Assembly (NCBI GenBank): GCA_963790305.1
Contig: CAWBOC010000005.1
Location: 608,001 to 672,000 of the forward strand
Direction: 5' to 3'
Length of the DNA: 64,000 nt
Origin: an uncultured Gemmatimonadaceae bacterium
GTDB taxonomy: Bacteria > Gemmatimonadota > Gemmatimonadetes > Gemmatimonadales > Gemmatimonadaceae
Shown here: piece by piece, positions 13,692 to 61,869 of the stretch
How the letters are laid out: every line of letters starts with the position of its first letter
Numbering within the stretch: position 1 is the first letter of the stretch
Notes under the pieces: generated by a model
The model's database searches: none
Told to the model about the DNA's origin: nothing
What the model saw: the letters and a program-made list of their open reading frames with translations, nothing else
Made by a program: the position numbers and the translations under genes

Positions 13692-13782
13692 GCATGACCA
13701 CAGAGGCACTGAGGCACAGAGGACGGCAATCACCAAGCCGGTGGTTGCCGTCCTCTGTGCCTCAGCGCCTCTGTGGTTATGC
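13692..13782. repeat. Hairpin element family E (CACAGAGG arms)
   Basis: GCATGACCACAGAGGCAC...CCTCTGTGGTTATGC; contains the phhA stop codon. Confidence 0.9.
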
Positions 13783-14532
13783 CGTTGCGGTCCGGCGCTG
13801 ACGTACTTCCTCAACCGCCTCGAAGAGCTGATCGAACGAATCGACGACGAACAACACGTTCTGCAGTCGGTCGATGTCGAACGATTGGCTCATCACCGCA
13901 TCGACGTCGAACGGTCGCCGATCGCAATTCGGACCGAGCGCGTTCGCCGCATCGGCGTGCGACGAGATGAGCCCGCTGCCATAGATCCGGGTGCGCCCAC
14001 GTTCGCGAATGAGGCCGAACTCCACGGTGAACCAGAACAGCCGCGCCATGGCCACCGTCTGCTCCTCGGTCTCCGCGTGTGCCGCCAGCGCGCCGAACCT
14101 CTGGAGGAAATCGCCGAACACCGGGTCTGCGTGGAGCGGAACATGGCCGAAGACATTGTGGAAGATGTCCGGCTCCGGCAAGTAGTCGAGCTGCTCTCTC
14201 GGGCGGACCTTGAGCGTGGTCGGGAAGCGACGGCGCTCGAGGCATCGAAAGAACTGCGCTGCCGGGATGAAGCCGCTCACGCCCACGGCGGCCCATCCCG
14301 TACGCGCTGCCAGGCGCACGTTTACGTCCGCGAGATCAGGAACGCGATCCGACGAGAGCCCAATGCGCTCCATTCCGGATAGAAATGCCTCGCTCCCTGT
14401 GTCGACGAGCGTGGCCATCCTCCGCTCGTAGAGCAGTCGCCACACGGCGTGCGCCTCATCGTCGTACAGATCGTAGTCCTGGGCGGTGAATGGGGGCAGC
14501 TCCGCGGCGGGCGCGTCGGATGTGTCGAGCAT
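13777..14532 (-). CDS. phhA: Phenylalanine 4-hydroxylase
   Basis: GAGGA RBS; YLPEPDIFHNVFGHVP (two Fe-binding His), FWFTVEFGL (Fe-binding Glu), YGSGLISS; single-domain bacterial length. Confidence 0.93.
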   Translation of the reverse strand: MLDTSDAPAAELPPFTAQDYDLYDDEAHAVWRLLYERRMATLVDTGSEAFLSGMERIGLSSDRVPDLADVNVRLAARTGWAAVGVSGFIPAAQFFRCLERRRFPTTLKVRPREQLDYLPEPDIFHNVFGHVPLHADPVFGDFLQRFGALAAHAETEEQTVAMARLFWFTVEFGLIRERGRTRIYGSGLISSHADAANALGPNCDRRPFDVDAVMSQSFDIDRLQNVLFVVDSFDQLFEAVEEVRQRRTATA

Positions 14533-14551
14533 GAGTTCCTCGTACTCGGAG

Positions 14552-14588
14552 AAAACAAAAAGCGGCCCGTGGAATCTCCACGGGCCGC
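14552..14588 (-). terminator. Intrinsic terminator in the phhA 5' leader (attenuator)
   Basis: GCGGCCCGTGGA-GAT-TCCACGGGCCGC followed by TTTTTGTTTT, about 20 nt before the phhA start. Confidence 0.9.
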
Positions 14589-14614
14589 GGGCGAAACTGG
14601 CTGATCGCGAGCGC

Positions 14615-14701
14615 TTACACGCGCAAACGCCTGCCACCGCGTTCCGTGGGCCGGGACGCGTAGGGATAGTAGACAGCTGCGCGCAGGAAGGAGCTCACCA
14701 T
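14615..14701 (-). CDS. Putative Tyr-rich leader peptide (28 aa)
   Basis: MVSSFLRAAVYYPYASRPTERGGRRLRV*; codons TAC TAT CCC TAC; below the ORF-track size cutoff. Confidence 0.75.
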   Translation of the reverse strand: MVSSFLRAAVYYPYASRPTERGGRRLRV

Positions 14702-14707
14702 GCCAAC

Positions 14708-14736
14708 AGGGTATACGCCGGCTGTCATGAGGTCAA
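14708..14736 (-). promoter_or_regulatory. sigma70 promoter giving a leaderless leader-peptide mRNA
   Basis: TTGACC-N17-TACCCT-N6-ATG. Confidence 0.65.
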
Positions 14737-14823
14737 GCGGAGCGGCCGCGCAGCGGTTGCGCTTGCCAGCAGGGCGAGCGCGCTCTATTGTCGCCGTCCC
14801 ATTGTCGAAGGCTGAGCCGATCC

Positions 14824-15628
<805 letters not shown>

Positions 15629-15630
<2 letters not shown>

Positions 15631-15711
15631 GTAGTCGAGGGTGTCGAGGTGATCGAGGAGGGCGACGACGTGCCCTGGATCACCTCGACGACCTCGATAC
15701 CCTCGACCTCC
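15629..15711. repeat. Hairpin element family D (nonamer GTCGAGGTG-like arms)
   Basis: Three TCGAGG units at 9-nt period followed by three CCTCGA units. Confidence 0.75.
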
Positions 15712-15763
15712 TTGTGCTTCACCTGCGCGCGCACGAACATGAGGTATCCCGCTGCGAGGCATC

Positions 15764-17623
15764 ATGCAGCCAACGGACGTCGCGGATCCGCGGTACTACC
15801 ATAAGGTCGTAGACTGCCAATGGGGCTGTCCGGCACACACCAACGTGCCGGAATACATTCGCCTCATCGCGCAGGGCCGCTACACCGAGTCGTACCTGGT
15901 CAACCGGGCGTCCAACGTCTTCCCCGGTATCCTTGGCCGCACCTGTGACCGGCCCTGCGAGCCGGCGTGCCGCCGAACCCGCGTCGATGGAAAGCCGGTC
16001 GCGATTTGTCGCTTGAAGCGCGTCGCCGCTGATTTACGCGACGATGTCAGCGACTTCCTGCCGAAGATCCCCGAGCGCAAGAACGGCAAGCGTGTCGCGC
16101 TCGTTGGCTCCGGCCCGGCATCGCTCACCGTGGCGAACGACCTCATGCCCCAGGGCTATGAGTGCGTGATCTTCGAGAAGCTCGGCCGGCCTGGCGGGCT
16201 GATGCGGACGAACATTCCGGCGTTTCGTCTCCCCGCGAGCGTGCTGGATGAGGAAGTCGCGATGATCATCGACATGGGCGTCGATCTGCGACTGAGTACG
16301 CCGGTGGCGAGCATGGGCGGGCTGCTCGCCGAGGCGTACGACGCGGTTTTCGTCGGGAGCGGCGCGCCGAAGGGGAAGGAGCTGGACATTCCCGGCCGGT
16401 GGGACACGAACCGGATCCACATCGGCATCGAGTGGCTCGAGTCCGTCCACTTCGAGCATACCACATCGATCGGTGAGCGGGTGCTCATCATCGGCGTCGG
16501 CAACACCGCGATGGACTGTTGCCGCAGCTCGCGCCGGTTAGGCGGCAGTGACATCAAGGTGATGGCGCGCCGTTCGCGTAAATACTTCAAGGCATCCGCG
16601 TGGGAGCTCGACGACGCGATCGAGGAAGGCGTTGAGATCGTGGAGAACCACGCGCCGAAGCGATTCATCGTGGAGAATGGCCGCCTCGTCGGGATGGAGT
16701 TCGAGCGGCTGCGGTGGACCGACAAGGATGGAAAGCAGCGGAGCGAGGTGATCGACACGGTCACGATCCCGTGCGACGACGTCATCCTCGCCATCGGTCA
16801 GGAGAATGCTTTCCCGTGGATCGAGCGCGACATCGGCATCACGTTCGATGATGCCGGGATGCCGGTCGTCGATCGCATGACGATGCAGTGCAGCCGGCCG
16901 GGCGTGTTCTTTGGTGGCGATGCGGCATGGGGGCCGGAAAACATCATCTGGGCGGTGGAGCACGGACACCAGGCAGCCATCTCGATCCACAATTACTGTC
17001 AGGGACTGCCGATCACCGACCGACCCGCCTACGGGATGAACCTGGTGAGCGCCAAGGTGGGCATGCATGCCTGGCGCTACAGCAACGACTACAGTCCGGC
17101 GCCGCGCGCCGCGATGTCGCACGTCGAGCTGACGCAGCGCTTTCAGAAGCTCAATGTCGAGGTCGAGCTCGGATTCAGCGCCGAGCAGACGGCGCACGAG
17201 GTAGAGCGCTGCCTGAACTGCGATATCCAGACGCACTTCACCGCGCCGTTGTGCATCGAATGCGACGCCTGCATCGACGTGTGTCCGGTGAACTGCCTGA
17301 CGATCACCACCGACGGCCCCGAGGAAGATCTGCGCACCCGGCTGTCTGCCCCGGCGCTCAATCTCCAGCAGGAGATCTACGTGTCGGCCGCCCTGCCGCA
17401 GACGCAGCGCGTGATGGTGAAGGATGAGGACGTGTGCCTCCACTGCGGCTTGTGCGCCGAGCGCTGCCCGACGGCGGCGTGGGATATGCGCGAATTCGAG
17501 CTATTGATTCCGTACGCGGGGAGGATTGCGGAAAGCGGAATGCGGAAGAACGCCACGACCGGTGGCGGAAGCATCCCGGCATCACCCATTCCGCCTTCCG
17601 CATTCAGCGTTCGCTCTCCATGA
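15764..17623 (+). CDS. GltD/SfrB-like NADPH-dependent FAD/Fe-S oxidoreductase with ferredoxin domain
   Basis: CQWGCP, CDRPCEPAC, GSGPAS, GVGNTAMD, CIECDACIDVCP, CLHCGLCAERCP. Confidence 0.9.
   Translation: MQPTDVADPRYYHKVVDCQWGCPAHTNVPEYIRLIAQGRYTESYLVNRASNVFPGILGRTCDRPCEPACRRTRVDGKPVAICRLKRVAADLRDDVSDFLPKIPERKNGKRVALVGSGPASLTVANDLMPQGYECVIFEKLGRPGGLMRTNIPAFRLPASVLDEEVAMIIDMGVDLRLSTPVASMGGLLAEAYDAVFVGSGAPKGKELDIPGRWDTNRIHIGIEWLESVHFEHTTSIGERVLIIGVGNTAMDCCRSSRRLGGSDIKVMARRSRKYFKASAWELDDAIEEGVEIVENHAPKRFIVENGRLVGMEFERLRWTDKDGKQRSEVIDTVTIPCDDVILAIGQENAFPWIERDIGITFDDAGMPVVDRMTMQCSRPGVFFGGDAAWGPENIIWAVEHGHQAAISIHNYCQGLPITDRPAYGMNLVSAKVGMHAWRYSNDYSPAPRAAMSHVELTQRFQKLNVEVELGFSAEQTAHEVERCLNCDIQTHFTAPLCIECDACIDVCPVNCLTITTDGPEEDLRTRLSAPALNLQQEIYVSAALPQTQRVMVKDEDVCLHCGLCAERCPTAAWDMREFELLIPYAGRIAESGMRKNATTGGGSIPASPIPPSAFSVRSP
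17527..17614. repeat. Family A hairpin inside a coding 3' end
   Basis: GCGGAAAGCGGAATGCGGAA ... ATTCCGCCTTCCGCATTCAGC. Confidence 0.7.
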
Positions 17624-19485
17624 CAAACGATTTCGCCTTCAAGATCGGCACGGTCAACGGCACCGGGTCAGCGAGCGCGAACGGGCTGATCATGCAGGCG
17701 ATCTTCCGGATGGGGATTCCCGTCTCGGGGAAAAACGTCTTTCCGTCGAACATTCAGGGGCTGCCGACCTGGTACGAGATCCGGGTCAACCGCGAGGGCT
17801 ACACGGCTCGCGCCCCGCATTTCGATCTCGTCGTCGCACTCAACCCTTCGACGTACCAGCGAGACGTCGCGGAGGTTCGGCAGGGCGGCTTTCTCCTGTA
17901 TGACTCGTCGTGGCCACTCGACCCAACGCTGAGGCGCGAGGACCTGTCACTGTTAGGCATCCCCTTCGGGCGGATGTGCGGCGAGGCGTTCCAGGGTGAT
18001 CGCGAGCGGCAGCTGATGCGCAACATCGCCTACGCCGGGGCGCTGGTCGCGTTCCTCAACATCGACATGGGCGTCGTCGAGGGGATGATCCGCGAGCAGT
18101 TCGGCCGAAAGCCGGCGTTGCTCGAGTCCAACTTCAAGGCGCTGCGGCTCGGGTACGACTTCGCGAAGGCGAACTTTTCCTGTCCGCTGCCCTTCTACCT
18201 CGAGCGGATGGACGCGACCGCCGACTCCATCATCATCGACGGCAACACCGCGGCGGCGCTCGGCTGCCTTTATGCGGGCGCGACCGTCGGCGCATGGTAT
18301 CCGATTACGCCGGCCACATCGCTGATGGAGGCATTCAAGGGATTGTGCGAGCGCTACCGCGTCGACCGAGCCACTGGACGCAAGCGCTTCTGCATTCTGC
18401 AAGCCGAGGACGAGCTCGCCGCAGCCGGGATGGTCGTCGGAGCAGGGTGGGCCGGTGCGCGTGCGTTCACGCCCACCGCGGGGCCGGGAATTTCGCTGAT
18501 GCAGGAGTTCATCGGGCTGGCGTACTACACGGAAATCCCCGCGGTTTTCTTCGACGTCCAGCGCGTCGGTCCGTCAACGGGTATGCCGACCCGGACCCAG
18601 CAGGGAGATCTGCTCTCGCTCGCGTACGCGTCGCATGGGGATACCAAGCATATCGTGCTCTTCCCCGCGCATCCGGAGGAGTGCTTCACCTTCGCGGTCC
18701 AGGCCTTCGACCTCGCGGAACGCTTTCAGACGCCGGTCTTCGTCGCGTCGGATCTCGACATCGGGATGAACGACTGGATGTGTCGACGCCTGACGTGGGA
18801 CGATGGCTATCGCCCCGATCGCGGAAAGGTATTGGGCGCCGAGGAACTCGAGCGGATTGGGAAATTCTCGCGCTACCTGGGGCAGAACGGAGACGCGGTT
18901 GCCGCGCGCACGCTTCCCGGGGTCGACCCGCGTGGTGCGTACTTCACGCGGGGATCCGGGCACGACATCCATGCCGGCTACACCGAGGATGCGGCGGCGT
19001 ACTCCGAGGTCCTCGCGCGGCTCGCGCGCAAGCTCGAGCAGGCGGCCGACGCCGTGCCCGCGCCGGTGATCGACCGGCACAACGGCGCCGCGACCGTCGG
19101 GATCATTACGATCGGCAGTTGTGACGCCGCGGTGCGTGAGGCGGTGGACCGGCTGAGGTCGGACGGCATGGCGATCGACTACATGCGCATTCGCGGGTTC
19201 CCGTTCGGCGGCGACGTCGTGCGTTTTCTTGGGGAGCACGATCGCTTGTTCGTCGTCGAGCAGAATCGCGATGCGCAGCTGCGATCCCTACTCGCGATAG
19301 AGACGGGCAAGGCGCGCGATGAGATGACGCCGATTCTCGATTACGGTGGCGTTCCGCTGAGCGCAGAACCGATCGCGGAAAGAGTGAGAGTCGAATACGG
19401 AATGCGGAATGCGGATCGTGAACGGAAGGCTGCAGGTCTTCATTCGCATTCCGCATTCCGTATTCCGCATTCCAGTCTCCCATGA
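17620..19485 (+). CDS. korA: 2-oxoacid:ferredoxin oxidoreductase alpha subunit
   Basis: NGTGSASAN, YPITP, QAEDELAA, GPGISLM, VQRVGPSTGMPT, VVEQN; ATGA overlaps at both ends. Confidence 0.93.
   Translation: MTNDFAFKIGTVNGTGSASANGLIMQAIFRMGIPVSGKNVFPSNIQGLPTWYEIRVNREGYTARAPHFDLVVALNPSTYQRDVAEVRQGGFLLYDSSWPLDPTLRREDLSLLGIPFGRMCGEAFQGDRERQLMRNIAYAGALVAFLNIDMGVVEGMIREQFGRKPALLESNFKALRLGYDFAKANFSCPLPFYLERMDATADSIIIDGNTAAALGCLYAGATVGAWYPITPATSLMEAFKGLCERYRVDRATGRKRFCILQAEDELAAAGMVVGAGWAGARAFTPTAGPGISLMQEFIGLAYYTEIPAVFFDVQRVGPSTGMPTRTQQGDLLSLAYASHGDTKHIVLFPAHPEECFTFAVQAFDLAERFQTPVFVASDLDIGMNDWMCRRLTWDDGYRPDRGKVLGAEELERIGKFSRYLGQNGDAVAARTLPGVDPRGAYFTRGSGHDIHAGYTEDAAAYSEVLARLARKLEQAADAVPAPVIDRHNGAATVGIITIGSCDAAVREAVDRLRSDGMAIDYMRIRGFPFGGDVVRFLGEHDRLFVVEQNRDAQLRSLLAIETGKARDEMTPILDYGGVPLSAEPIAERVRVEYGMRNADRERKAAGLHSHSAFRIPHSSLP
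19393..19473. repeat. Family A hairpin inside the korA 3' end
   Basis: GAATACGGAATGCGGAATGCGGA ... CATTCCGCATTCCGTATTCCGCATTCC. Confidence 0.85.
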
Positions 19486-20537
19486 CCTCCATTCCCAAAC
19501 CCCCCGTCCGCCACCCCGGCCTCCCGCGCAACGCGCTGGGCCTCACGACTCGCGACTACGAGGGCGGGATGTCGACGCTGTGCGCGGGGTGCGGGCATGA
19601 CTCCATCACCTCGGCGATCATTCAGGCGGTGTGGGAGCTCGATCTGCCGCCGCACCGCGCCGCCAAGCTGAGCGGAATCGGCTGTTCGTCGAAGACCACC
19701 GCGTATTTCATGCGGCAGTCCCATGGGTTCAACGCGGTTCACGGCCGCATGCCCGCCGTCGCCAGCGGGGTTCAGGCGGCGAATCGCGAGCTGGTGTGCA
19801 TCGGCGTGTCCGGCAATGGGGACTCGCTTTCCATAGGACTGGGTCAGCTGTGTCACGCGATCCGGCGCAACATCAACCTGCTCTACGTGCTCGAGAACAA
19901 CGGCGTCTACGGCCTGACGAAGGGGCAGTTTTCGGCCTCGGCCAATGTCGGATCGAAGTCGAAGCGCGGGGAGCCGAACGTACAGCAGCCGATCGATCCG
20001 GTGCTGCTCGCCCTGACGCTGGGCGCGACCTTCGTGGCGCGTGGCTTTTCCGGCGACAAGGCGCAGCTCGTGCCGATCCTCAAGGCCGGGCTCGCCCACC
20101 GCGGCTTCGCGCTCATCAATGTCATCTCACCGTGCGTGACGTTCAACGACCATGAGGCTTCGACGAAGAGCTACCGCTTCACGCGTGGCCATCGGCACGA
20201 GGTCGCGCCGGTGGATTTCATCCCCATGACACGCGAGATCGCGGCGGTGGCCGCGCCGGGCGCGGCGATACGAGTGACAATGCACGATGGGAGCGTGGTT
20301 CGATTCCGCGCCGTGGACGAGAGTTACGATCCCACCAACCGCGACGCGGCCTACGCACACATCCGCCGACTCCAGAGCCAGGGCGAGGTGGTAACGGGGC
20401 TGCTGTACATCGATCAGAGCGCGCCCGACATGCACGCGGTGAGCGCGACGATCGACGAACCACTGACGCGTGTCCCCTACGAGCAGCTGTGTCCCGGGAG
20501 CGCGGCATTGGAGGCGTTGCAGGAAGAATACAGATAG
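19482..20537 (+). CDS. korB: 2-oxoacid:ferredoxin oxidoreductase beta subunit
   Basis: LCAGCGH, SGIGCSS, HGR, TPP motif read as GNGD, YGLTKGQFS, SPCVTFN. Confidence 0.93.
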   Translation: MTSIPKPPVRHPGLPRNALGLTTRDYEGGMSTLCAGCGHDSITSAIIQAVWELDLPPHRAAKLSGIGCSSKTTAYFMRQSHGFNAVHGRMPAVASGVQAANRELVCIGVSGNGDSLSIGLGQLCHAIRRNINLLYVLENNGVYGLTKGQFSASANVGSKSKRGEPNVQQPIDPVLLALTLGATFVARGFSGDKAQLVPILKAGLAHRGFALINVISPCVTFNDHEASTKSYRFTRGHRHEVAPVDFIPMTREIAAVAAPGAAIRVTMHDGSVVRFRAVDESYDPTNRDAAYAHIRRLQSQGEVVTGLLYIDQSAPDMHAVSATIDEPLTRVPYEQLCPGSAALEALQEEYR

Positions 20538-20578
20538 AGGTGGTCGAGGTCGTCGACATCCTTGATGACCTCGACCAC
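20537..20578. repeat. Family D hairpin (short)
   Basis: GTGGTCGAGGTCGTCGA...TTGATGACCTCGACCAC directly after the korB stop. Confidence 0.65.
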
Positions 20579-20614
20579 ATTTCTCACCCATTCCACCGCA
20601 TCTGGAGTCCGTAC

Positions 20615-21796
20615 ATGGTTGCCGTTCGTCGTTTCCTAATGGGAGTCGCCGCGGTTTTTCCGTGCTCGCTCGCTGCCCAAAACACCCCGCCCACCGGCGC
20701 CTTCATCGTGAGGCTCGGCACCGACACCACCGCGGTGGAGCGGTTCACACGATCGGAGAATACCTACCAGATCGAGCAAGCACTGCGCAGCCCGCGGACG
20801 AGCTTCAGGCACACGCACCTCGAGCTCGCGCCGAGTGGGGAGATCGCGACCGTCCATTTGATGTTTCACTCGATCGACCAGCCGAGCGGACCGCTCCTCG
20901 GCAGTACGCAGCTCACGTACGGAAGTAGCGACAGCGCGACGGTCGAGCAGAAGCGCGGCGATTCAGCAAGCACTCGTCGCGTGCCCGCGCGCGGTGGTGC
21001 GATCCCGTCGCTGCCGCAGTCATTTCTTGCCTACGAGCTGGCGGCAATGCGAATGCGCGCGACGAAGGCCGATAGCATGGCGGTGACGCTGGTGAACCCG
21101 AGCGGCGACCCCACAGCGGTGGTCGTCACCCGTGTTGGCGCCGATTCGATGACGTTCCGGCTGCCGTTCCTGACGTATCGCGCACGCGTCAATGCCGCCG
21201 GCCGCATAACGCGCCTCTATCAGCCACGCGGCACGTCGGTGGAGCGTGTTCTCAATGTCGACGTCAACCAAGTCGCGAAGGGGTGGGCAGCGCTCGATGC
21301 GAGCGGCAAGCCCATGGGACCACTCTCGCCCAGAGATTCGGTCTCCGCTCGCGTGGGCGATGCGGCGGTGTCGATTCGCTACGCGCGCCCGAGCAAGCGT
21401 GGCCGAGTGGTATTTGGCGACATCGTTCCCTGGGACTCCGTATGGCGCACCGGCGCGAACGAAGCGACGGTGCTGACCACCGATCGAGATCTCGTCATTG
21501 GCGGCACGATGGTCCCCGCGGGGAGCTACACGCTGTTCACGATTCCATCGCGCAGCGGAACGAGGCTCATCATCAATCGTGAAACCCTGCGCGATGGTGA
21601 GCCGCTCGCCGGTACCGACTACGACGCGTCCAAGGACTTCGCTCGCATCGCGATGAGCACGAAGACGCTCGCGGCGCCCGTGCAGCAGTTCACGATCGCA
21701 ATCACGCCGCGCGGGGCGCGGGAAGGAGTACTCCGCCTGGCGTGGGACCGGCGCGAAATGACCGTGCCGATACAGGTCCGCCGCGTCGCGCCCTGA
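20615..21796 (+). CDS. DUF2911-domain secreted protein
   Basis: Signal peptide; LSPRD, YARPSKRGR, WRTGANEAT, AGSYTLFTIP. Confidence 0.85.
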   Translation: MVAVRRFLMGVAAVFPCSLAAQNTPPTGAFIVRLGTDTTAVERFTRSENTYQIEQALRSPRTSFRHTHLELAPSGEIATVHLMFHSIDQPSGPLLGSTQLTYGSSDSATVEQKRGDSASTRRVPARGGAIPSLPQSFLAYELAAMRMRATKADSMAVTLVNPSGDPTAVVVTRVGADSMTFRLPFLTYRARVNAAGRITRLYQPRGTSVERVLNVDVNQVAKGWAALDASGKPMGPLSPRDSVSARVGDAAVSIRYARPSKRGRVVFGDIVPWDSVWRTGANEATVLTTDRDLVIGGTMVPAGSYTLFTIPSRSGTRLIINRETLRDGEPLAGTDYDASKDFARIAMSTKTLAAPVQQFTIAITPRGAREGVLRLAWDRREMTVPIQVRRVAP

Positions 21797-21814
21797 TCGC
21801 GGCCGGAGGCGTGC

Positions 21815-22817: not shown

Positions 22818-22819
22818 CG

Positions 22820-25117: not shown

Positions 25118-25178
25118 GGAGGCAGCCTGTGCGGTGAGCCTCCAAAATGCGTCTTCGCGCTTCGTCCCGCGAGGGCCA

Positions 25179-25282
25179 ACGGCATTAACCACAGAGGCAC
25201 AGAGGGCACGGAGGAACCCCGAACTGCAGGCCCTGCAGTTCGGGGTTCCTCCGTGCCCTCTGTGCCTCTGTGGTTATGCCGT
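25179..25282. repeat. Hairpin element family E
   Basis: ACCACAGAGGCACAGAGGGCACGGAGG, self-complementary core, then the inverted arm. Confidence 0.9.
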
Positions 25283-25304
25283 CAAGGCCCTTGCGCGAGG
25301 AAGC

Positions 25305-27334: not shown

Positions 27335-27437
27335 GGCGAATGCGGAATGCGGAATGCGGATTGATGAATTGGGTTGGGCGCCCGGCTCCCAGGCGACCGT
27401 CATGCTCAATCCGTATTCCGCATTCCGCATTCGCCTT
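27333..27437. repeat. Hairpin element family A
   Basis: AAGGCGAATGCGGAATGCGGAATGCGGATTGA ... TCAATCCGTATTCCGCATTCCGCATTCGCCTT fills the gap between convergent stops. Confidence 0.9.
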
Positions 27438-30838: not shown

Positions 30839-30942
30839 ACTGCATCACCACAGAGGCACAGAGGGCACAGAGAATGGCCAACTGCAAAGGCCTTTGCAGT
30901 TGGCCATTCTCTGTGCCCTCTGTGCCTCTGTGGTGATGCAGT
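30839..30942. repeat. Family E element; perfect 104-bp palindrome
   Basis: 52-bp arms are exact reverse complements about 30890/30891. Confidence 0.95.
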
Positions 30943-31394
30943 CATAGCACGACGCGCACAATGCCGTCCCGGAGCAGTTCAGTGTTGAAGTTCATGAGAA
31001 GACCGATCCGAAGTCGCGAGAGCTTGAGGTATGTAATGACCTGAGCTGTGTGAACTGGCGCTAGCCGCTCGATCGCCTTCAGCTCGACGAGAACGCGTTT
31101 CTCGACAACGAGATCAAGCCGATAGCCGGCGTCCACATGAACGCCCTTGTAAACAAGAGGAAGCGCTATCTCGCGCTCCATGCTCAGGCCCCGATGGTGA
31201 AGCTCCCAACACAAGCACTCCCGGTACGCCGACTCGAGCAGCCCTGGCCCGAGCTGCCGATGGACCTCTATCCCCGCGCCGATGATCTGGCCCGTGATGG
31301 AATCCCTCTGTGCGCTCTGTGCCTCTGTGGTTATGCTCTTGGCTCGTGCGTAGAGGACCCCAAGGGTGCTCGCTGGATATCGCGCCACCGTCAT
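30942..31394 (-). CDS. GxxExxY protein (PD-(D/E)XK nuclease superfamily)
   Basis: IIGAGIEVH, GPGLLESAY, YRLDLVVEKRVLVELKA, QVITYL, GLLMNF; start uncertain. Confidence 0.92.
   Translation of the reverse strand: MTVARYPASTLGVLYARAKSITTEAQSAQRDSITGQIIGAGIEVHRQLGPGLLESAYRECLCWELHHRGLSMEREIALPLVYKGVHVDAGYRLDLVVEKRVLVELKAIERLAPVHTAQVITYLKLSRLRIGLLMNFNTELLRDGIVRVVL
31305..31336 (-). repeat. Single family E arm at the 5' end of the GxxExxY gene
   Basis: GCATAACCACAGAGGCACAGAGCGCACAGAGG, read in frame as ITTEAQSAQR. Confidence 0.9.
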
Positions 31395-31424
31395 CAATCC
31401 AACTCACGAGGAATCCACGAGCCT

Positions 31425-49428: not shown

Positions 49429-49444
49429 TGGCCCTCGTGATGCT
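49429..49444 (+). promoter_or_regulatory. sigma54 -24/-12 promoter
   Basis: TGGCCCTCGTGATGCT (GG-N10-GC). Confidence 0.6.
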
Positions 49445-49499
49445 TTTGCATGAGCCCGCGGTGACCGAACGGTCACGCGCCACCATCACGGAGGATCAC

Positions 49500-49880
49500 A
49501 TGAACACGCAAGCGCAGGAAACGACGGCGCACCTCCCGGTGGTGCGCAGCGACATACGGCCGACGCCCTTCAAGCCCCCTCGCTACTCGTACGGCTTCGC
49601 CGACCGCGCAGATGCCGCACAGGTCGCCGCGCTGGCGGGCCATTACCCACTTGAGCTGGTGCGGGACAGCCTGAGGCAGGGCAACGACGAGTGGATCATC
49701 GCCCGGCGCGGCGAGGCGATCGTCGCAGCGATTCACGTGCGAGCCGAGCCAGACTGGCGGGCGCACAAGATCCATGGACTCGTCGTCGCCGAACCACACC
49801 AGCGTTGCGGCCTGGAGCGGTATCTCACGCACCTCGCCGAGCTCTGGATTCAATCGATCAATCTTCCGGCCGCGGCCTAA
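49500..49880 (+). CDS. GNAT-like protein
   Basis: GGAGG RBS; IHGLVVAEPHQRCGLERYL resembles acetyl-CoA binding motif A. Confidence 0.6.
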   Translation: MNTQAQETTAHLPVVRSDIRPTPFKPPRYSYGFADRADAAQVAALAGHYPLELVRDSLRQGNDEWIIARRGEAIVAAIHVRAEPDWRAHKIHGLVVAEPHQRCGLERYLTHLAELWIQSINLPAAA

Positions 49881-49937
49881 CCAGTCGCGATCTACAACTA
49901 CCCGAGCGCTCACATGACATCACGCACGGAGGTTCGC

Positions 49938-51083: not shown

Positions 51084-54000
51084 AAATCGTCAAGGATTCA
51101 CTCAAATATCCGGCGGTCACGCTGACGCTGATCGCGATGGTCGTCATCGCGGGCGCGCTGTCGCTGCTCAAGATGCCGCGTCGCGAGGACCCGCAGATCA
51201 CGATTCGTGCGGGCCTGGTGATGGCCTTCTATCCGGGCGCCACCGCCGAGCAGGTAGAGGCGCAGGTCACGCGCAAGATCGAGGAGCGGCTCTTCCGCTT
51301 CTCCGAGGTGAAGAAACGGAAGACCTTCTCCACCAGCCGCGATGGCATTGTCATCGTGCAGCTCGAGCTCGAGGACTGGGTCACGGACCCGGACCTGTTC
51401 TGGTCGAAGCTGCGGCACGACATGAACGAGCTGAAGAGTCGTGAGCTGCCGCAGGAAGTACAGGGAGTCACGGTCGATGGTGACTTCGGCGACACGGTTG
51501 CCCAGCTCATCGCCGTCTCCGGCGAGCGCTACGGCTACCGGGAGCTGAAGGACTACGTTGGCCGGATCGAGGACGCGCTGCGCGCCATTCCCGCCACCTC
51601 GAAGATCAAGCGGTATGGGGAGCAGCGAGAGCAGATCGAGGTCGCGACATCGTTGTCGCGGTTGTCACAGTATTCGCGTCACGCCGACGCAGATCATCTC
51701 GGCGCTTCGGCAACAGAACCTCGTTGAGTACGCGGGCAGCTTCGAGACGGAAGCGGGCGACGTGCCGCTCCAGACGTCGGGCCTGTTCCAGACGGAGGAT
51801 CAGCTGCGAGCGCGTGATGGTGGACGTGTCGAAGACGACGGGGCAGCCGGTGTATCTCGGTGACTTCACCGACGTGCGCCGCCGCTACGAGGATCCCTCG
51901 TCGTTCGTGCGCGTCGACGGCAAAGCCGCCGTCATGCTGTCGGTGGAGATGCAGGAAGGGAACAACATCGTGGAGTTCGGCGCGGCGGTGGAGGAAGCGC
52001 TCGCCGAAGTGAAGCGGACCTTCCCGCCGGATCTCAAGGTCACCCTGGTGGCGGATCAGCCGCGCGTCGTCGAGGAGCGGATCAGTCACTTCAATCGCGA
52101 GTTCGCGATCGCGATCGTGGCGGTCGTGCTCGTCACGATGCTGTTGCTGCCCTGGCGCGTGGCGACGATTGCCGCCGTCGCCATCCCGGTCACGATCGCG
52201 TGCACGTTCGCAGCGCTGGACTGGGTTGGCGTGGAGCTGCACCAGGTGTCGATCGCGGCGCTGATCGTCGTGCTCGGCATGGTCGTCGATGACGCCATCG
52301 TCATCGCCGACAACTACGTGGAGCTGCTCGATCATGGGTTGACGCGCGCCGAAGCGGCGTGGCGCAGCTCGAGCGACCTCGCGGCGCCGGTGCTCGCGGC
52401 AACGCTGACGATCATCGCATCGTTCGTCCCGCTCGCGTGGCTCTCCGGAACAACGGGTGAGTTCATTCGCGCACTGCCAATCACGGTTGCCGTGTCGCTC
52501 CTCTGCTCCTTCGTCGTGGCGATGGTGCTGACGCCGATCCTGGCGTACACCTTCATCAAGACGGGGCTACGGGCGCACCAGCCTGAGGGATACACACCGC
52601 ACGTGCAGCAGCCCCCGCGCACCTGGCTCGGGCGCGTTCGCGCCTTCAGGCCGCTCGACGCGATGGAGCGTGCCTACGACTGGGCGATTCGCATCGCCAT
52701 GCCGCGCAAGCGGCTGACGCTGTTGTCCGGCGTCGCGGCGTTTTTCGCCGGTCTCGTCATGTTGAGCTTCGTCGCCGACCAGTTCTTCCCGTTGGCTGAG
52801 CGCGACCAGTTCGTGATCGACGTCTGGATGAAAGAGGGCACGCGCATTGGTGCCACCGATGCCGCCGTTCGCAGCATCGAGGCGGAGCTCGAGCGCACCC
52901 CGAACGTGACCGAGGTTGCGTCGATCATCGGGGCCGGCGCGCCGCGGTTCTACTATGCGATCTCGCCCGAGATCTCGACGCCGTCGTACGCGCAGATCGT
53001 CGTCAACACGACGTCGCCGGAGATCACGCCGGAGATCGTGAAGGAGCTCAGTCACAAGCTGCCGGCTCTCGCGCCCGAAGCGCACATCATGGTGAAGGAG
53101 CTGCAGCAGGGCGCCACGTCGGCGGCACCCGTCGAAATCCGCATCACCAGCGAGGACATGGGAACGCTCAAGAAGGTGGGCGCCCAGATCCAGACGCTAT
53201 TCTACAACACGCCCGGCACGCGGGACATCACGACCGACTTCCGGAACGACACCTACCGCCTGGCGGTGAAGGTCAATCAGGAAGCGGCCAGTCGTGTCGG
53301 CCTGACGAGCGCCGGTATTTCACGGTTGCTCGCGGGTGGCTTCGAGGGGGCTCCCGTCTCGACGTTCTGGGAAGGAAGCCGCGCCGTGGACATCACCCTT
53401 CGCCTGGGCGAGAGCGAGCGGCAGCGCTTCGACGACATCTCCGCGGCGTACATCACGTCCGAGGTCACGGGCGCCCGCGTTCCGCTCAGTCAGGTGGCGA
53501 CGCTGACGCCGGTGTGGGAGCCAAGCCGGATCGTGCACCGCAACGGGTTGCGCACACTCACGGTTCGCACGTTCGCGCAGGAGGGATTCCTCCCGTCGCA
53601 GGTGCTGGCGACGATCCGCGCCACGACCGATACGCTCACGCTGCCCGAAGGCACGTCGATCGAATACGGTGGCGAGTACGAGAACCAGACGGACACGCAG
53701 GGCGAGATGTACATCGCCCTGATGATAAGCCTTGTCATGATCTTCCTGATTCTGCTGCTGCAGTTCCGGAACATTCGTATTCCGCTGGTCGTGATGGTCT
53801 CCATTCCGCTGGCCGTCGTCGGCGCAGCACTCGGCCTGTTGATGACCGGCAATCCGTTCAGCTTCACCGCGTTCCTCGGAGTGATCGGGCTCATGGGGCT
53901 CGTCGTCCGAAACGCGATCATCCTGGTGGACTACATGAATGAGCAGCTCGCGAAGGGGGTCGAAGTGGAGCAGGCGGCGATCGATGCGGGCCGTCGCCGG

Positions 54001-55614
54001 CTGCGGCCGATCTTCCTGACGACGATGGCCGCCGCCGCCGGCGTGCTGCCGATGATTCTGTCGGGCTCGAGCATGTGGTCGCCGCTCGCCAGCGTGCTGG
54101 CAATGGGACTCATTGTGTCGATGATTTTCACGCTGATCGTGGTGCCCGTGTTGTACGTCGTCGTCGAGGGCCGCCGTCACAAGAAGCCCGCGGCGCCGGC
54201 CCCGGTGAAGGCACCGCTATGGGAAGAGGAAGAAGAGGACGAGAACGCGGCGGTATTCACCGGCGCCCATCCGATGGTCAAGGTGACCCCCGTGCTCGCG
54301 ATCGCGTTAGGGATCGCCTTCTCGGTCTCGACTGCCTCGGCGCAGGAAGCGACCGGTCGCCTGACGCTGGAGGATGCCGTCGCGATTGCGCTTCAAAAGA
54401 ACAGCGGTGTGCGCGTGGCGCGCAGCCGCGCCGAGGAAGCCATGTATCGCACGCAGCAGTCGACACGCTCGATGCTGCCGTCGATCAGCGCGACCTTTCA
54501 GACGACGCAAAGCACCGCCAACGAGCGACTGGAGTTCGCGCGGGGCTCGCTGGGAGTGTTCGACGGGCAGCCGATTCCCAACGAGAACATCGCGATCGAG
54601 CAGGGCGGCAGCAGCTCGAGATACGGGACGCTGACGATCGCACAGCCTATCACGTCGCTGCTGAAGATTCGGGCGGCGCGTGACGTGGCCAAGGCGGAGG
54701 AGCGCTCGTTCACCGCTGAGGCTCGGAAGGCTGAGCTCGACGTCGCACTGGCCGTGGAGAAGGTGTACTACGGCCTGCTCGTGGCGCAGCATCGCCGGCA
54801 GGCGGCGGCGCTGCGAGTTGACGTCACCGAGGACGCGCTTCGTCACCGTGTCCGCAGCGTCGCGAACGGCACGCAGCTCCCCGTCGCGGAGCTCGAGGGA
54901 CGCACCGCGGCGCTGGATGCCCGGCAGAGCTTGCAGGCGGCCGAGGACGAGATTGCCGACTACGCGGCCACGCTCTCCGAGCTGTTAGGCGTGCCGGTCG
55001 ATCCCGCCGTGCAGTTGGTGACACCGGCGCGCGCGAACCTGGCCGACTCGGTCACGGTCGACGGCCTGATCGGACGGGCGATGGTAGACAACCCGGACGT
55101 GGCGGCGGCAGGTGAGATGGTGCGGCAGGCGGAAGGAGGGCTGCGAGCGAAGCGCGCGGCGTATATCCCCGACGTCGCGGTATATGGCACCGAGATGTAT
55201 CAGACAGCGGTGCCGTTGCTGGCCAAGAACAATTTCATGTTCGGGATCAAGGCCGAGTGGACGGTATTCGACTTCGGCAAGCGTGAGGCGAGCGTCGCCG
55301 AGTTGCGCGCGACAAAGCGAACGGCCGAGGAAAATCTGCAGCGCGTGCGGCGCGAGATCGCGACGGACATCGAGCAGGGACAGCGAAAGGTCGAGCGGGC
55401 TCGGCGCAGCGCAGTGCTGGCGGGAGAAGTTTTGACCCTTCGGCGCGAAGCGGCGCGGATCAAGATCGACCAGGTGGCGAGTGGGCTGATACTGGCCACC
55501 GAGGGTGCGGAGGCGGAGGCGGCTGTCGCGAGCGCGCAGGCCGATGCGCTCGCCGCGGAAGTTGGATACCGATTGGCGGTGGCTGAGCTCAAGAGAGCGG
55601 CTGGAATGCGGTAA
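51080..55614 (+). CDS. RND permease fused to TolC-like OMF (frameshifts ~51674, ~51810)
   Basis: PRREDP, GMVVDDAIV, RNAII, RRLRPIFLTT, then in frame LTLEDAVAIAL, WTVFDFG and OMF helices. Two single-base insertions join three ORF-track segments. Confidence 0.88.
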
Positions 55615-55640
55615 AACCCAGGGAGGTGATCACAGGCAGC

Positions 55641-55676
55641 GGGTGGGCGGCTTTCGGGCCGCCCACCCTTCATTTT
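55641..55676 (+). terminator. Intrinsic terminator of the efflux operon
   Basis: GGGTGGGCGGC-TTTCGG-GCCGCCCACCC followed by TTCATTTT. Confidence 0.75.
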
Positions 55677-55728
55677 CCTCTTGCGCGGCCGGAAACGAAT
55701 GCGAAATTGACGGTTACCCCCTCCTGGC

Positions 55729-57425
55729 GTGGCGATCGTGGACATCGATCGCGAGTTCGAGCAGCTTCCCAATCGCCCTCTCAACACCGAGGCGCGCACC
55801 GACCCGCCCAGCGGGGCCGTGCGTGTCCCTGCGCCCCGGGCGGACGCCGGCCCGGAGGGCGAGCCGCGCCTCGACACGTTACGCGCGGTCACGCGACACA
55901 TGGCCACCGCCGATCATCTCGACACCGTCCTCCAGTCGATCGTGACGGCGCTGGTGGAACGGGCCAATGGTCTGTTCTCGCGGCTCTTTTTGTACCTGTA
56001 CGACCACGAATGCGACATCTGCCGGGCGCGCATCAATGCCGGCCAGCAGGTCGCCTCGGACCAACGGTCGCTGCACCTTCTCGCGACGGCGGGACCGAGC
56101 CGCAATCCCAATGGTCCGCGGCATCGAATGCCGCTCGACGGTCCGCGTCTCGCCTCCGAGGTGATGCGAACGGGCACCCCGCTCCATCTGCCCGACGTCC
56201 GCCTCAATGAACGCGCAATGCAGGACTCGGTCATCAGCGAGCTCGTTCGTGACCGCGGAGCCGTGGGGATGGCCGGCTACCCGCTGACGTACCGCGGCGA
56301 GCGACTGGGTGTGGTGGGGTATGTCAGCCGCAACACGATCAGCGTCGAGGCGTTCGAGATGCTCGGCATCTTCGCCGATCAGGCGGCGATGGCGATCAAG
56401 AACGCGTTTCTATTTCGCGAGCTGGAGCGATACAAGGAACGGCTGCAGATCGAGAACGCGTATCTCGCCGAAGAGATTCGCGCCGACCGGGGATTCGAGG
56501 ACCTCGTCGGCGCGAGCCCCGCGCTGAAATCGGTGATTCGGCAGGTCAAGCAGGTGGCGCCCGTCGACACGACCGTTCTCCTGACGGGGGAGACGGGTAC
56601 GGGAAAGGAGCTGGTCGCGCGCGCGATCCACGGGCTGAGCCCGCGAAGCTCGCGGCCCCTCATCAAGATGAATTGCGGCGCCATCCCGCAGGGCCTGGTG
56701 GAGTCGGAGCTGTTCGGACACGAGCGCGGCGCGTTCACCGGAGCGCTGCAGCGCCGAATCGGGCGCTTCGAGCTGGCGGACAAGGGCACGCTGTTCATGG
56801 ACGAGGTGGGTGAGCTTCCACTCGATACGCAGATCAAGCTCCTTCGCGTGCTCCAGGAGCACGAGCTCGAGCGGGTGGGCGGCACTCGCGCCAATCAACG
56901 TCGACGTGCGTCTGGTCGCGGCCACCAACCGCGATCTCGACGCCGAGGTGACCGCCGGCAGGTTCCGCTCGGATCTCTACTTCCGGCTCAACGTCTTTCC
57001 GATTCACATCCCGCCGCTCCGGGAGCGGCCCGAGGACGTCCCACTGCTCGTCAGGCACTTCCTGGCGTACTTCCAGCGCAAGCTCGGGAAGCCGATCCAC
57101 GGACTGACCCCGGCCAGCCTCCCGGAGCTGAAGCGATATGCCTGGCCGGGAAACATCCGCGAGCTCCAGAACGTCGTCGAACGTGCCTGTGTGCTGGCGC
57201 GGACTCCCATCGTCGACGCGGCCGATGCATTGCGAATGTCCGGCGATGACGCTCGTGAGGTGGAGGAGCCGATCGTGACGCTGGAGGAGGCGGAGCGCGC
57301 GCTCGTCAGGCGGGCGCTGGCGGCGACCAATGGAAAGGTCCACGGCGAAGGGGGCGCGGCGGCACTCCTGGGGCTGAACGGGAACACGCTCCGCTCCCGA
57401 ATGCAAAAGCTCGGAATCGGGAAGC

Positions 57426-57436
<11 letters not shown>
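55729..57436 (+). CDS. GAF-AAA+-HTH sigma54 activator, FhlA-like (frameshift ~56890)
   Basis: [22 protein letters not shown]; the other frame continues [25 protein letters not shown]. Confidence 0.9.
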
Positions 57437-59075
<1,639 letters not shown>

Positions 59076-59077
59076 GG

Positions 59078-59160
59078 ACTGCGAGCTGCGAGCTGCGAGC
59101 TGCAAGGGGCAATCGCTTTCGTGGCTTTCCCTGCGGTCTTCGCAGTTCGCAGTTCGCAGT
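59078..59160. repeat. Hairpin element family C (GCGAGCT/TCGCAGT heptamers)
   Basis: (CTGCGAG)x3 ... (TTCGCAG)x3 directly after a stop codon. Confidence 0.8.
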
Positions 59161-59374
59161 TGCTTCTGTCGCCCATCTCACCGCGTCCCATCGTCAGTCC
59201 GCGAAATATCGCAACGACCGCTCTGCCCGCCGAGCACCTCCGCCGCGCGCGCAAGCTCTCAACACGTTGATAGAGCGCGCGTTGCGCGCGCATGCAAAAC
59301 TTCCCGAGAACGGTCTCGGCATTGCCTTCCAGCTTGGCGTTGAACGGCGATGACTTCGTTCCCGGAGAGTTCAG

Positions 59375-61198
59375 ATGGGCTCGTTCCACAACAACTCTGT
59401 CTTCCGCCACGCGACCGCGCTGCTGGCGCTTGGGGTGCGCCTCTATCTCGCGTTCGTCTGGCTTCGCTACGGCATCGGCAAGATCGAGACTGGATGGCTG
59501 ACGTCGAACCCGCTCAAGGGACTCATCGACGTCGTCGCGAAGGGCTACACGAACGCCTGGCTTCCGATCTACGAGCCACTCGCGCGCTGGGCGCTGGCGC
59601 TCGGGCTCGATGGCGCTCTCGCGGTCGCGTTCCCACTGACCGAGCTGGCAATCGGGCTGGCGCTCATCACCGGCGTCGCGCTTCGACCGGCGCTGCTCCT
59701 GGCCACGTTCATCAATCTCAATCTCGTGATGTCCGGACTGGCGCCCTGGGCGTTCGACGGTCGCGTCATCCTCCTGCAGCTCTTCGTGCTCGCGCTGGGC
59801 GCGACCGCGAATCGTTACGGATTGCGCTCAGTCGCGGCGAGGCTGCGTCGCGCTCCGATCGACGACAATTCCGGAGAATCGCGTAAGCACATCGTGATCG
59901 TCGGCGCGGGCTTCGCCGGCATGCAAGCGGCGCGCGTCCTTCGCAACGCGCCCGTCGACGTGACGGTTGTCGACCGGTCGAACCATCACCTGTTTCAGCC
60001 ACTGCTGTACCAGGTCGCAACTGCGATCGTGTCGCCGAGTGACATCGCGGTGCCGATTCGCTCGGCGCTGCGGAAGCAGTGGAATGCGACCACTCTCCTT
60101 GGCCGCGTCACCGACGTTCGGCTCGATGCGCGCACCGTCGTGCTCGAGGGTCGTAAGGAGCTGACGTACGATTTCCTGATCCTCGCCGCGGGCGCTCGTC
60201 ACTCGTACTTTGGGCACGAGGGATGGGAAGCATGCGCGCCCGGACTCAAGAGCCTCGACGATGCGTTGGAGATCCGCCGCCGCCTTCTGCTGGCGTTCGA
60301 GCGCGCGGAAATGACCGACGATGCGGAGACGCGTGCGATGGAGCAGACCATCGTGATCGTCGGCGGCGGTCCCACCGGCGTGGAGCTGGCGGGCGCGATT
60401 CCCGAGATGGTGCAGACGGCGCTCGCGTCCGATTTCCGGCGCGCCGACACCCGTCGCACCAGAATCGTGTTGATCGAGAGGGGACCTCGGCTCCTCCCGA
60501 CGCTGGATCCCAAGCTCTCGGCGCGCGCGCAGAAGGATCTTCAGGCGTTAGGTGTCGAGATTCGGACAGACACGGAGGTCACTCAGATCACGGAAGGCGC
60601 CGTGCACCTGGGCGACGAGCGAATCCCGACGCGGACCGTGATGTGGGCGGCAGGAAACGTGGCGAACCCGTTGGGTCGACTTCTCGATACTCCGGTCGAT
60701 CGCTCCGGTCGCGTCCGCGTCACGCCGTATCTGGCCCTTCCCAACTATCCCGAGGTCTTCGTCGCGGGTGACATGGCGGCCATCGCCAGCGGAGGGGTGT
60801 CGGTGCCGGCGGTCGCGACCGCGGCGAACCAGATGGGACGGACCGCGGCGCGAAACATCCTTGCGACCATCGCGCGCCGTCCGCGCAGACGCTTCGTGTA
60901 CCGAGACAAGGGGAGCCTGGCAATCATCAACCGCCGTGCGGCGGTTGCGCAGATCGGCCGTCTCCGGATTCGCGGCTCACTGGCCTCGGCGCTCTGGGGA
61001 CTCGTGCACCTCGCGCATCTCGTCAGCCATCGCAGTCGTATGCGTGTGTTCGCGGAGTGGGTGTATGCCCACGTGACTCACGATCGCGGCTACCGGCTGA
61101 TCACGGGCACGACTGGCTACCCGCTTCGCGAAGGCGGCCGGCCAATCCACAGCATCGACCACGACGGCGAGCGCGCCGCTGCGCGTCGTGGCGCATGA
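59375..61198 (+). CDS. DoxX/DoxD-like membrane domain fused to type II NADH dehydrogenase
   Basis: RLYLAFVWLRYGIGKI..GW, ELAIGLALITG; then GAGFAG, HLFQPLLYQVAT, GGGPTGVELAG, WAAG, AGD, YRDKGSLA. Confidence 0.88.
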   Translation: MGSFHNNSVFRHATALLALGVRLYLAFVWLRYGIGKIETGWLTSNPLKGLIDVVAKGYTNAWLPIYEPLARWALALGLDGALAVAFPLTELAIGLALITGVALRPALLLATFINLNLVMSGLAPWAFDGRVILLQLFVLALGATANRYGLRSVAARLRRAPIDDNSGESRKHIVIVGAGFAGMQAARVLRNAPVDVTVVDRSNHHLFQPLLYQVATAIVSPSDIAVPIRSALRKQWNATTLLGRVTDVRLDARTVVLEGRKELTYDFLILAAGARHSYFGHEGWEACAPGLKSLDDALEIRRRLLLAFERAEMTDDAETRAMEQTIVIVGGGPTGVELAGAIPEMVQTALASDFRRADTRRTRIVLIERGPRLLPTLDPKLSARAQKDLQALGVEIRTDTEVTQITEGAVHLGDERIPTRTVMWAAGNVANPLGRLLDTPVDRSGRVRVTPYLALPNYPEVFVAGDMAAIASGGVSVPAVATAANQMGRTAARNILATIARRPRRRFVYRDKGSLAIINRRAAVAQIGRLRIRGSLASALWGLVHLAHLVSHRSRMRVFAEWVYAHVTHDRGYRLITGTTGYPLREGGRPIHSIDHDGERAAARRGA

Positions 61199-61242
61199 GA
61201 ATCAGCGGCGCCCAATCACCTGACACACTGAGGACATAGATC

Positions 61243-61737
61243 ATGAAAGCCATATCGCTGCTCGCGCTCGCCGTTGGTGCTACACTGATGGGATGCGCTT
61301 CCACCCAGGTGACCACCGACTGGGACCGCAACACGCAGTTTGCCAGCTATCACACGTATGTCTGGATGGACACGCCGCGCATGCAGGCGATGCAGCAAGC
61401 CACGCTGTTCGATCGCCGGCTCCGCGCCGCGGTCGAGGAGCAGCTCGCGGCGAAGGGAATGCAGAAGTCCGACACCAACGGTGCTGCCGATCTGTTGATC
61501 GTCTATCACGCTGGAGTGCAGGACAAAGTCGATGTGCAGTCGTGGGGCTACTTCGGCCGCCGCGTCGACGTCCGCGAGTACCAACAAGGGATGCTCGTCA
61601 TCGATGTCGTGGATGCCAGGACGAGGTCGCTGGTCTGGCGCGCGACGGCGAAGGACGAGGTCGGGGACGCGGATCCGTCGAGCGAGAAGATTGCGAAGGC
61701 GGTGCAGAAGATGTTCGCGGGCTTTCCGCGGGCGTGA
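61243..61737 (+). CDS. DUF4136 lipoprotein
   Basis: Lipobox LMGC, FASYHTY, YQQGMLVIDVVDA, LVWRA, MFAGFP. Confidence 0.85.
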   Translation: MKAISLLALAVGATLMGCASTQVTTDWDRNTQFASYHTYVWMDTPRMQAMQQATLFDRRLRAAVEEQLAAKGMQKSDTNGAADLLIVYHAGVQDKVDVQSWGYFGRRVDVREYQQGMLVIDVVDARTRSLVWRATAKDEVGDADPSSEKIAKAVQKMFAGFPRA

Positions 61738-61763
61738 GCCTGTTCATCGCGTAACGAGCACTG

Positions 61764-61869
61764 ACTGCATAACCACAGAGGCACAGAGGACACAGAGGAA
61801 ACCCGCATTGCAAGAGCCTTTGCAGTGCGGGTTTCCTCTGTGTGCTCTGTGCCTCTGTGGTCATGCAGT
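61764..61869. repeat. Hairpin element family E
   Basis: ACTGCATAACCACAGAGG...CCTCTGTGGTCATGCAGT; contains the TetR stop codon. Confidence 0.92.

Follow-up and report, generated by a model that had tools for sequence, protein, structure and literature searches.

Why does a small gene with a nuclease signature lie within a hairpin repeat that recurs without the gene elsewhere in the same genome? The question is posed by a 64,000-nucleotide stretch of DNA from an uncultured Gemmatimonadaceae soil bacterium (assembly GCA_963790305.1, contig CAWBOC010000005.1, positions 608,001–672,000; hereafter the window), where a gene of the GxxExxY family (PDDEXK_3; 30942–31334, reverse strand) is bordered by arms of a dispersed hairpin repeat that we call family E. 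A first interpretation made from the letters of this stretch, here called the sequence-only reading, had likened gene and repeat to repetitive extragenic palindromes (REPs) and REP-associated tyrosine transposases (RAYTs), and had proposed a mobile or repeat-maintaining system employing a non-transposase nuclease. Our analysis shows that the association of GxxExxY genes with such hairpins is real and specific, and that hairpin slots outlast their occupants, which may give way to another family or disappear, with both arms of a copy changing together.

Family-E hairpins in the window and the genome

A family-E hairpin at 30839–30942, a 52-bp stem with 100% pairing, separates a Met-zincin gene from the GxxExxY gene, which faces the hairpin with its 3' end; the TGA of the latter gene overlaps the last base of the hairpin. 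A single arm at 31305–31349 (reverse strand), consisting of the outer flank and three 8–9-nt units, overlaps the start of the gene, and its part at 31305–31336 is translated in frame as ITTEAQSAQR. The enclosure of the gene by inverted arms, as first described, stands relative to the far arm of the downstream hairpin only, the near arm being a direct repeat of the upstream arm. Gene-less copies with self-complementary cores had been reported at 13692, 25179 and 61764, and are confirmed at 13692–13782 (43-nt arms, 93% pairing), 25186–25276 (45-nt arms, 100%; pairing extends to 25179–25283) and 61764–61869 (50-nt arms, 94%). The stems in the window measure 43–52 bp, two of them perfect, and as RNA the stems reach −89 to −108 kcal/mol.

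A census of the source genome (4.3 Mb, 66% G+C, 94% complete) with a 17-nt arm word and at most two mismatches gave 72 matches, i.e., 35 hairpins and two single arms. No two of the 35 copies are identical in sequence, and the inner cores show 91% identity between the arms of one copy compared with 66% between copies. The outer ends of the arms (n = 70) have no common tag, and the GTAG/CGTC tag as a marker of REP units is found at none of the four window copies, although one window end happens to read CGTC. The outer GCGCAACGAGCC flank was considered as a separate repeat and rejected, as it is not enriched (148 matches compared with 175 for the reversed control). An Rfam scan of the window matched no known RNA family.

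Association of GxxExxY genes with hairpin arms

To score enclosure, inverted repeats were sought between the 200 nt on each side of a gene, a score of at least 14 being counted as a pass. Of 153 loci given, 152 had a match and 145 had full flanks; one locus, a miss, was counted twice (L103 = L014), and no claim rests alone on L039, which comes from an unpublished genome (G015). Inverted arms enclose the GxxExxY gene at 100 of the 145 loci, whereas none of 250 random short genes of the source genome and none of 124 shifted window pairs are enclosed. The proportion is 61/78 in a subset from many phyla, which leans towards arms because the search patterns included the arm-coded peptide and the best 80 of 422 loci were taken, and 39/67 in a subset picked by hidden Markov model (73 of 105 matches taken). 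A score based on tandem periods separated poorly in the hairpin-rich source genome (65/145 versus 50/250) and was not used.

The association extends to whole genomes and to the protein phylogeny. A general arm pattern was looked for in 61 related genomes and is present in 22 of the 33 that have the gene and in three of the 28 that lack it, a comparison in which kin are non-independent and the gene's own arms are counted; 12 of the 13 genomes with at least eight arm-pattern matches hold a GxxExxY gene. In two genomes (G009 and G029) the commonest of the arm words listed is the one beside the GxxExxY gene. A protein tree of 72 rows, built without the arm-coded N-terminus, has a split supported at 99/98 that separates 30 G-type and four unlabelled sequences from 26 T-type and 12 unlabelled ones, with no crossing. 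On a 150-row tree (134 labelled), six arm labels require 30 changes compared with a mean of 67 and a minimum of 60 after shuffling, although kinship explains part of this. Both expectations of the sequence-only reading, that the gene is tied to the repeat more closely than random genes are and that repeat type co-varies with protein phylogeny, are thus borne out.

Persistence and replacement at orthologous slots

Forty-eight family-E hairpins of congeneric genomes were surveyed, of which 33 could be mapped to the source genome by both flanks and 15 lacked two-flank synteny. They define 29 distinct slots in the source genome: 17 hold family E, seven another family, and five none or other content (one of the five not inspected). 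Occupancy by another family at seven of the 12 non-E slots is above the share that hairpin density would give (18%; p 0.002). In the reverse direction, of 12 source-genome slots fetched, eight were searched, and seven show another family at or beside the slot in a congener (some by one flank only). In the clearest case, C9:326560, the source genome has family E, G008 and G004 have a hairpin of GCGAACT heptamers, G002 has a third type, and the slot is empty in G001, G003 and G006; empty orthologous sites, which the sequence-only reading expected, are therefore found. At C10:19197 in G006, the left and right arms come from different families around one conserved core. Changes in the arms of 18 of 21 orthologous E–E pairs comprise 71 mirrored columns, 70 one-sided columns, many of them at the trimmed hairpin centre, and no shared-asymmetric column.

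Among the window slots, the hairpin at 13692 is kept in G008 and G004. At 25179, two congeners (G008 and G004) carry family E, two (G002 and G006) carry other families and G003 carries a short hairpin (partly by one flank only), and at 30839 a CACnGAG-type hairpin is present in 7/7 congeners, different each time. The 61764 region was not found among the five congeners searched. Elsewhere in the source genome (C3:170760–170850), a worn family-E hairpin has a family-J arm at its centre and a second J arm outside. Assembled contigs from four DNA runs of related strains showed, among the rows listed, no joint skipping a family-E hairpin.

Inheritance of the gene copies

Next to the Met-zincin gene, on its 3' side, the GxxExxY gene is found in the source genome (G000) and in G001, G002, G003, G004, G006 and G008, i.e., at a fixed locus in 7/7 congeners that yielded the region; the region was not recovered from G005 (89% complete) and G007 (71% complete). 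The ratio of nonsynonymous to synonymous substitution rates (dN/dS) of the window gene relative to six orthologs is 0.07–0.19. Only seven of 72,556 plasmid records have GxxExxY relatives, all non-mobilizable and six of them longer than 400 kb, and none of 50,697 phage records has any; 11 pattern matches in viral contigs were not confirmed. The four GxxExxY paralogs of the source genome are 33–51% identical to the window protein where scored, each adjoins its own array and groups with orthologs of the congeners, and none is a recent copy at a new position. The fixed locus, the low dN/dS, the rarity on plasmids and in phages and the grouping of paralogs make the pattern RAYT-like and not like that of an insertion sequence (IS). 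As judged from these genome comparisons, the gene itself is not moving but is single-copy and vertically inherited. The suggestion that it is a mobile autonomous element is thus not supported, whereas the repeat-maintaining half of the proposal is.

Sister families and four-helix-bundle genes

A search of the source genome with twelve seed words of our choice returned 355 intergenic hairpins in 12 families. Four families lie beside four GxxExxY genes and six beside six genes encoding four-helix-bundle proteins (TIGR02436; the one scanned also matches PF05635, 23S_rRNA_IVP). The six genes are laid out in the same way, and no catalytic site is known in them; repeat families of this type therefore do not depend on a nuclease, a point missed by the sequence-only reading, as were the replacements between families at a slot. 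The GxxExxY gene appears to be one of some ten small genes in the source genome, each maintaining its own repeat family.

The congeneric genomes each have a few single-copy GxxExxY lineages in addition to four-helix-bundle lineages. Each lineage adjoins its own array of about three 7–10-nt units, and the array recurs in gene-less hairpins, which number up to dozens and for the most part lie shortly beyond gene 3' ends. In 12 genomes of another family there is no GxxExxY match, and 11 of them have four-helix-bundle genes; conversely, G011 and G030 have GxxExxY and arms with no four-helix-bundle match. With arrays present in genomes lacking GxxExxY, this indicates that the two protein families do not need each other. 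GxxExxY as a common enzyme for the four-helix-bundle families is ruled out, since five of five tested genomes without GxxExxY carry such arrays. Searches for other movers in the source genome returned no match to PF01797 (Y1_Tnp), as expected of a RAYT, and none to PF00078 (RVT_1), as expected of a reverse transcriptase; at 94% completeness these negatives are not proof of absence.

Three sister families occur in the window, all with their cognate four-helix-bundle gene elsewhere in the genome: family M (GAATGCG units; 1658–1743, 19393–19472 and 27338–27432), family N (CAGAATT units; 8742–8881) and family J (GTCGAGGT units; 15634–15698). A branched two-stem core, GGAAAGG...CTCATCWGATGAG...TTTCC, has five copies in the source genome (C1:154407, C5:490544, C5:607133, C6:372554 and C9:361042), all wrapped in family-O arms. 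It is present at one slot in four congeners (loci L308, L310, L311 and L312) with different arm families around it, and is possibly a further mobile or structured-RNA unit. At L018 (G011:C18) and G029:C40:7652–7944, arms form tail-to-tail and head-to-head runs that resemble clusters of bacterial interspersed mosaic elements (BIMEs) or of REP doublets forming hairpins (REPINs).

Protein encoded by the GxxExxY gene

The open reading frame 30942–31397 (reverse strand) matches TIGR04256 (E 3.8e-44; 149.8 bits against a cut-off of 35) and PF13366 (E 2.8e-42; 144.2 bits against a cut-off of 22), and the GxxExxY motif is present as GLLESAY. The frame is open to a TTG at 31397, and we assign a start at the in-arm ATA, which gives 130 residues. 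In the alignment of starts, the ATG at 31394 is not conserved, and the in-arm ATA of G000, G008 and G004 lies opposite an ATG in G002; the arm therefore probably supplies the start codon.

Glu34, Asp74, Glu84, Lys86 and Gln98 are intact and are 97–100% conserved across 150 sequences; we take them to be the PD-(D/E)XK active site, with a catalytic role assumed from the motif. The predicted structure (predicted local distance difference test, pLDDT, 94) has mostly PD-(D/E)XK proteins as its top fold neighbors, among them Cas4 (4ic1, Z 7.8), R.SwaI (7.7) and Hjc (1gef, 7.0), with tRNA-splicing endonucleases among the weak matches. A Foldseek search with the predicted model gave no match at E 0.001 or better, and a sequence search for a solved relative found none (best E 1.1). 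On this model, the protein is a member of the PD-(D/E)XK nuclease fold with predicted activity, in agreement with the identity first proposed. PADLOC was consulted for a defence-system identity, which was discarded, only Cas4b being returned (E 0.036). In the available text of PMC3424549, PF13366 is listed as of unknown function.

Position of the hairpins relative to genes

Gene ends and gaps were taken from a rough gene finder of our own (3826 genes), which missed the GxxExxY gene itself. Gaps between convergent genes hold 17 of the 35 family-E copies, compared with 223 of 1771 among all gaps of at least 90 nt (p 2e-7), and 48 of the 70 gene ends that flank the copies are 3' ends, 41 of these within 50 nt of the array. 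The preference for 3' ends in the sequence-only reading is thus upheld. The remaining 22 flanking ends are 5' ends, and four copies lie between divergent genes.

The terminus of the arm was also thought to supply stop codons. At 13692, between a PQQ-type dehydrogenase gene (forward strand) and phhA (reverse strand), the TAA of phhA does fall in the arm. At 61764, between a DUF4136 gene (forward) and tetR (reverse), the latter is frameshifted in the assembly, with TetR_N in 61958–62725 and TetR_C in 61861–62139 in different frames, and the C-terminal piece alone stops at the in-arm TGA. A stop codon lies within the arm at six of 70 arm ends, and the codon before ACCAC is ATG at four, ATC at 25 and ATA at 18; a ready ATGA coupling junction therefore fails as a general trait of the family.

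Several small genes of the source genome carry one-base frameshifts like that of tetR, which may be assembly errors. The PQQ-type dehydrogenase gene (12128–13669) and phhA (13777–14637) converge on the 13692 hairpin; in G008 and G004 the hairpin is retained and both genes are missing. Genes are likewise gained or lost next to hairpins at C9:996675 and C10:452686, and hairpins may mark places of frequent gene turnover. Three similar genes for GAF and sigma-54 activator proteins lie at 55729–59075 and 62747–63988. The first two are in tandem 1640 nt apart and 73–80% alike over 300-nt blocks, and the first and third are apparently split into overlapping frames.

Proposed mechanism and alternative explanations

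We propose, with a probability of roughly one half, that the GxxExxY gene belongs to a domesticated, vertically inherited repeat-maintenance system that resembles REPIN/RAYT with an unrelated protein, and in which hairpins are overwritten in place by nicking and host repair. Recognition, cutting and repair are what we infer from the observed population pattern. The protein would recognize the unit array cognate to it where a hairpin is extruded (as a cruciform, or as single-stranded DNA at replication), and the predicted PD-(D/E)XK site would nick or cut there. Host recombination or repair would then fill the break with an arm copied from elsewhere in the family, in many cases at a pre-existing hairpin or terminator, and fold-back template switching would mirror the new arm onto the opposite side. 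The host may tolerate the hairpins, or profit from them as terminators in both directions or as RNA stems at 3' ends, and the weak in-arm ATA start may keep the nuclease scarce. Tentatively, a widespread transposase-free class of domesticated repeat systems may be envisaged, in which two unrelated small proteins, a PD-(D/E)XK nuclease and a four-helix bundle of Avd-like type, would each recognize a code of short tandem units, and in which host repair would let rival families replace each other at fixed hairpin slots, one arm at a time.

Several observations weigh against overwriting by the cognate nuclease. Enclosure is also found around four-helix-bundle genes (32/34 loci; 35 best-scoring loci given), the five GxxExxY-less genomes tested carry 20–171 matches to their own array word, and cutting by a cognate protein is therefore not required for such a family. 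Families H and L are without a gene of their own in the source genome, and in 21 of the 33 genomes with a GxxExxY gene the arm-pattern matches number below eight. G032 (97% complete) has 20 arm matches on several contigs with no GxxExxY match, which suggests orphaned repeats or an unassembled gene, and in G004 the gene starts in an E arm but the hairpin behind it is of family H. The fold match is generic, with a best Z of 7.8 for the predicted model. If different families simply favour terminator sites, slots would be shared without any overwriting, and selection on the stem might account for the mirrored changes. Hairpin flanks are about 75–90% identical between congeners (around 85%), with no clean filled/empty junction and no readable target duplication.

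The main difficulty for the proposal is that the families with four-helix-bundle genes show the same behavior although these proteins have no catalytic site that is known; this leaves some probability to a role in binding, possibly at the RNA level. GxxExxY and four-helix-bundle proteins would then read their cognate arrays, perhaps on RNA, and act on transcripts that end in stems, through termination, decay or the RNase III-type processing that rRNA intervening sequences undergo, while the host alone spreads and mirrors the repeats. The PF05635 genes that share the layout in the absence of GxxExxY are in agreement with this, as are the facing 3' ends within 50 nt of the array, the stable RNA stems and the tRNA-splicing endonucleases among the fold matches. 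We nevertheless regard it as somewhat doubtful, because it leaves family replacement at slots and hybrid arms unexplained, the full nuclease motif is kept, and 5' flanking ends and divergent gaps also occur.

Two further explanations fit worse than overwriting in place or binding. That the arm–gene–arm unit jumps as an IS and mobilizes the hairpins as its own internal deletions, in the manner of miniature inverted-repeat transposable elements (MITEs), is unlikely: there is one gene copy per lineage at a fixed locus, relatives are nearly absent from plasmids and phages, no target duplication is readable in the diverged flanks, and all 35 copies differ. A lone 130-aa PD-(D/E)XK domain is not known to catalyse strand transfer. 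This already weakened explanation would account for the arm–gene–inverted-arm form at 61/78 loci of other phyla (the arm-biased set), for empty orthologous sites, and for the multiple transfers with which PF13366 is listed in the available text of PMC3424549. Even less probable is that a host enzyme spreads the hairpins and that the small genes are passengers caught between arms. Two unrelated protein families in one layout, the gain and loss of genes beside hairpins (the 13692 slot) and the gene-less arms of G032 would be expected, but none of the 250 other short genes is enclosed, arm types sort with the protein tree on either side of a deep split, and ten genes pair with ten different families in one genome.

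Through the pairing of gene and hairpin, a widespread nuclease family listed as of unknown function obtains a testable substrate, and the hundreds of intergenic hairpins in bacteria without RAYT (355 in the source genome) a candidate origin. Second and third unrelated protein families with the same population behavior would show which features of REPIN-type systems are general, and the ten gene–repeat pairs side by side in the source genome make a ready panel for cross-specificity. If the transposase-free class envisaged above exists, GxxExxY proteins would be a large collection, provided by nature, of 130-aa nucleases whose specificity for sequence plus structure could be learned.

Relation to known systems

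As minimal PD-(D/E)XK domains, the archaeal Holliday-junction resolvase Hjc and Cas4 resemble the window protein (1gef, Z 7.0, rmsd (root mean square deviation) 3.2 over 86 residues; 4ic1, Z 7.8, rmsd 3.8 over 99), but with all Z below 8 and no Foldseek match at the above threshold the likeness is one of common fold only. Hjc cuts four-way DNA, which a cruciform is.

TIRtrons, in the available text of Di Nocera et al. 2013 (PMC3733652), likewise have a gene between long inverted repeats, some of which overlap the gene ends, with arms that also form a dispersed family; however, their TIRYTs are tyrosine transposases, whereas the present genes encode GxxExxY or four-helix-bundle proteins and have tandem-unit arms. 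The 23S rRNA intervening sequences with open reading frames (S23p/PF05635; PMC4990558) have in common with the six sister genes the protein family and a position in the loop of a stem; the sister genes lie between protein genes and not in rRNA, and GxxExxY has an unrelated nuclease fold.

The closest likeness is to REPIN/RAYT as described in the available text of Bertels and Rainey 2011 (PMC3116915) and Bertels et al. 2017 (PMC5581495), with which the present system shares a single-copy, vertically kept chromosomal gene flanked by its own repeat, several pairs per genome, and inverted doublets that form hairpins near gene 3' ends and are type-matched to the gene. The low dN/dS of the GxxExxY gene is RAYT-like as well. 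Conserved extragenic spaces with mixed REPIN types that 'may be overwritten' appear in the available text of the REPORTH preprint (10.1101/2024.10.14.618302), and the slots of mixed type described here correspond to these. Our literature search found no account of a GxxExxY–hairpin pairing within its scope, to which supplements (e.g., the repeat catalogues of PMC3733652, which could list the arms) and most subscription journals did not belong; the pairing is apparently new to print. The likening to REP and RAYT accordingly holds for population behavior. The proteins are of the PD-(D/E)XK or four-helix-bundle type and not Y1/HUH tyrosine transposases, the arms are arrays of tandem 7–10-nt units and not short palindromic REPs, and the GTAG/CGTC tag is absent from the window copies; with no Y1 transposase and no tagged REP units, the system works like REPIN/RAYT but is not a member, and is apparently of the same kind with unrelated proteins.

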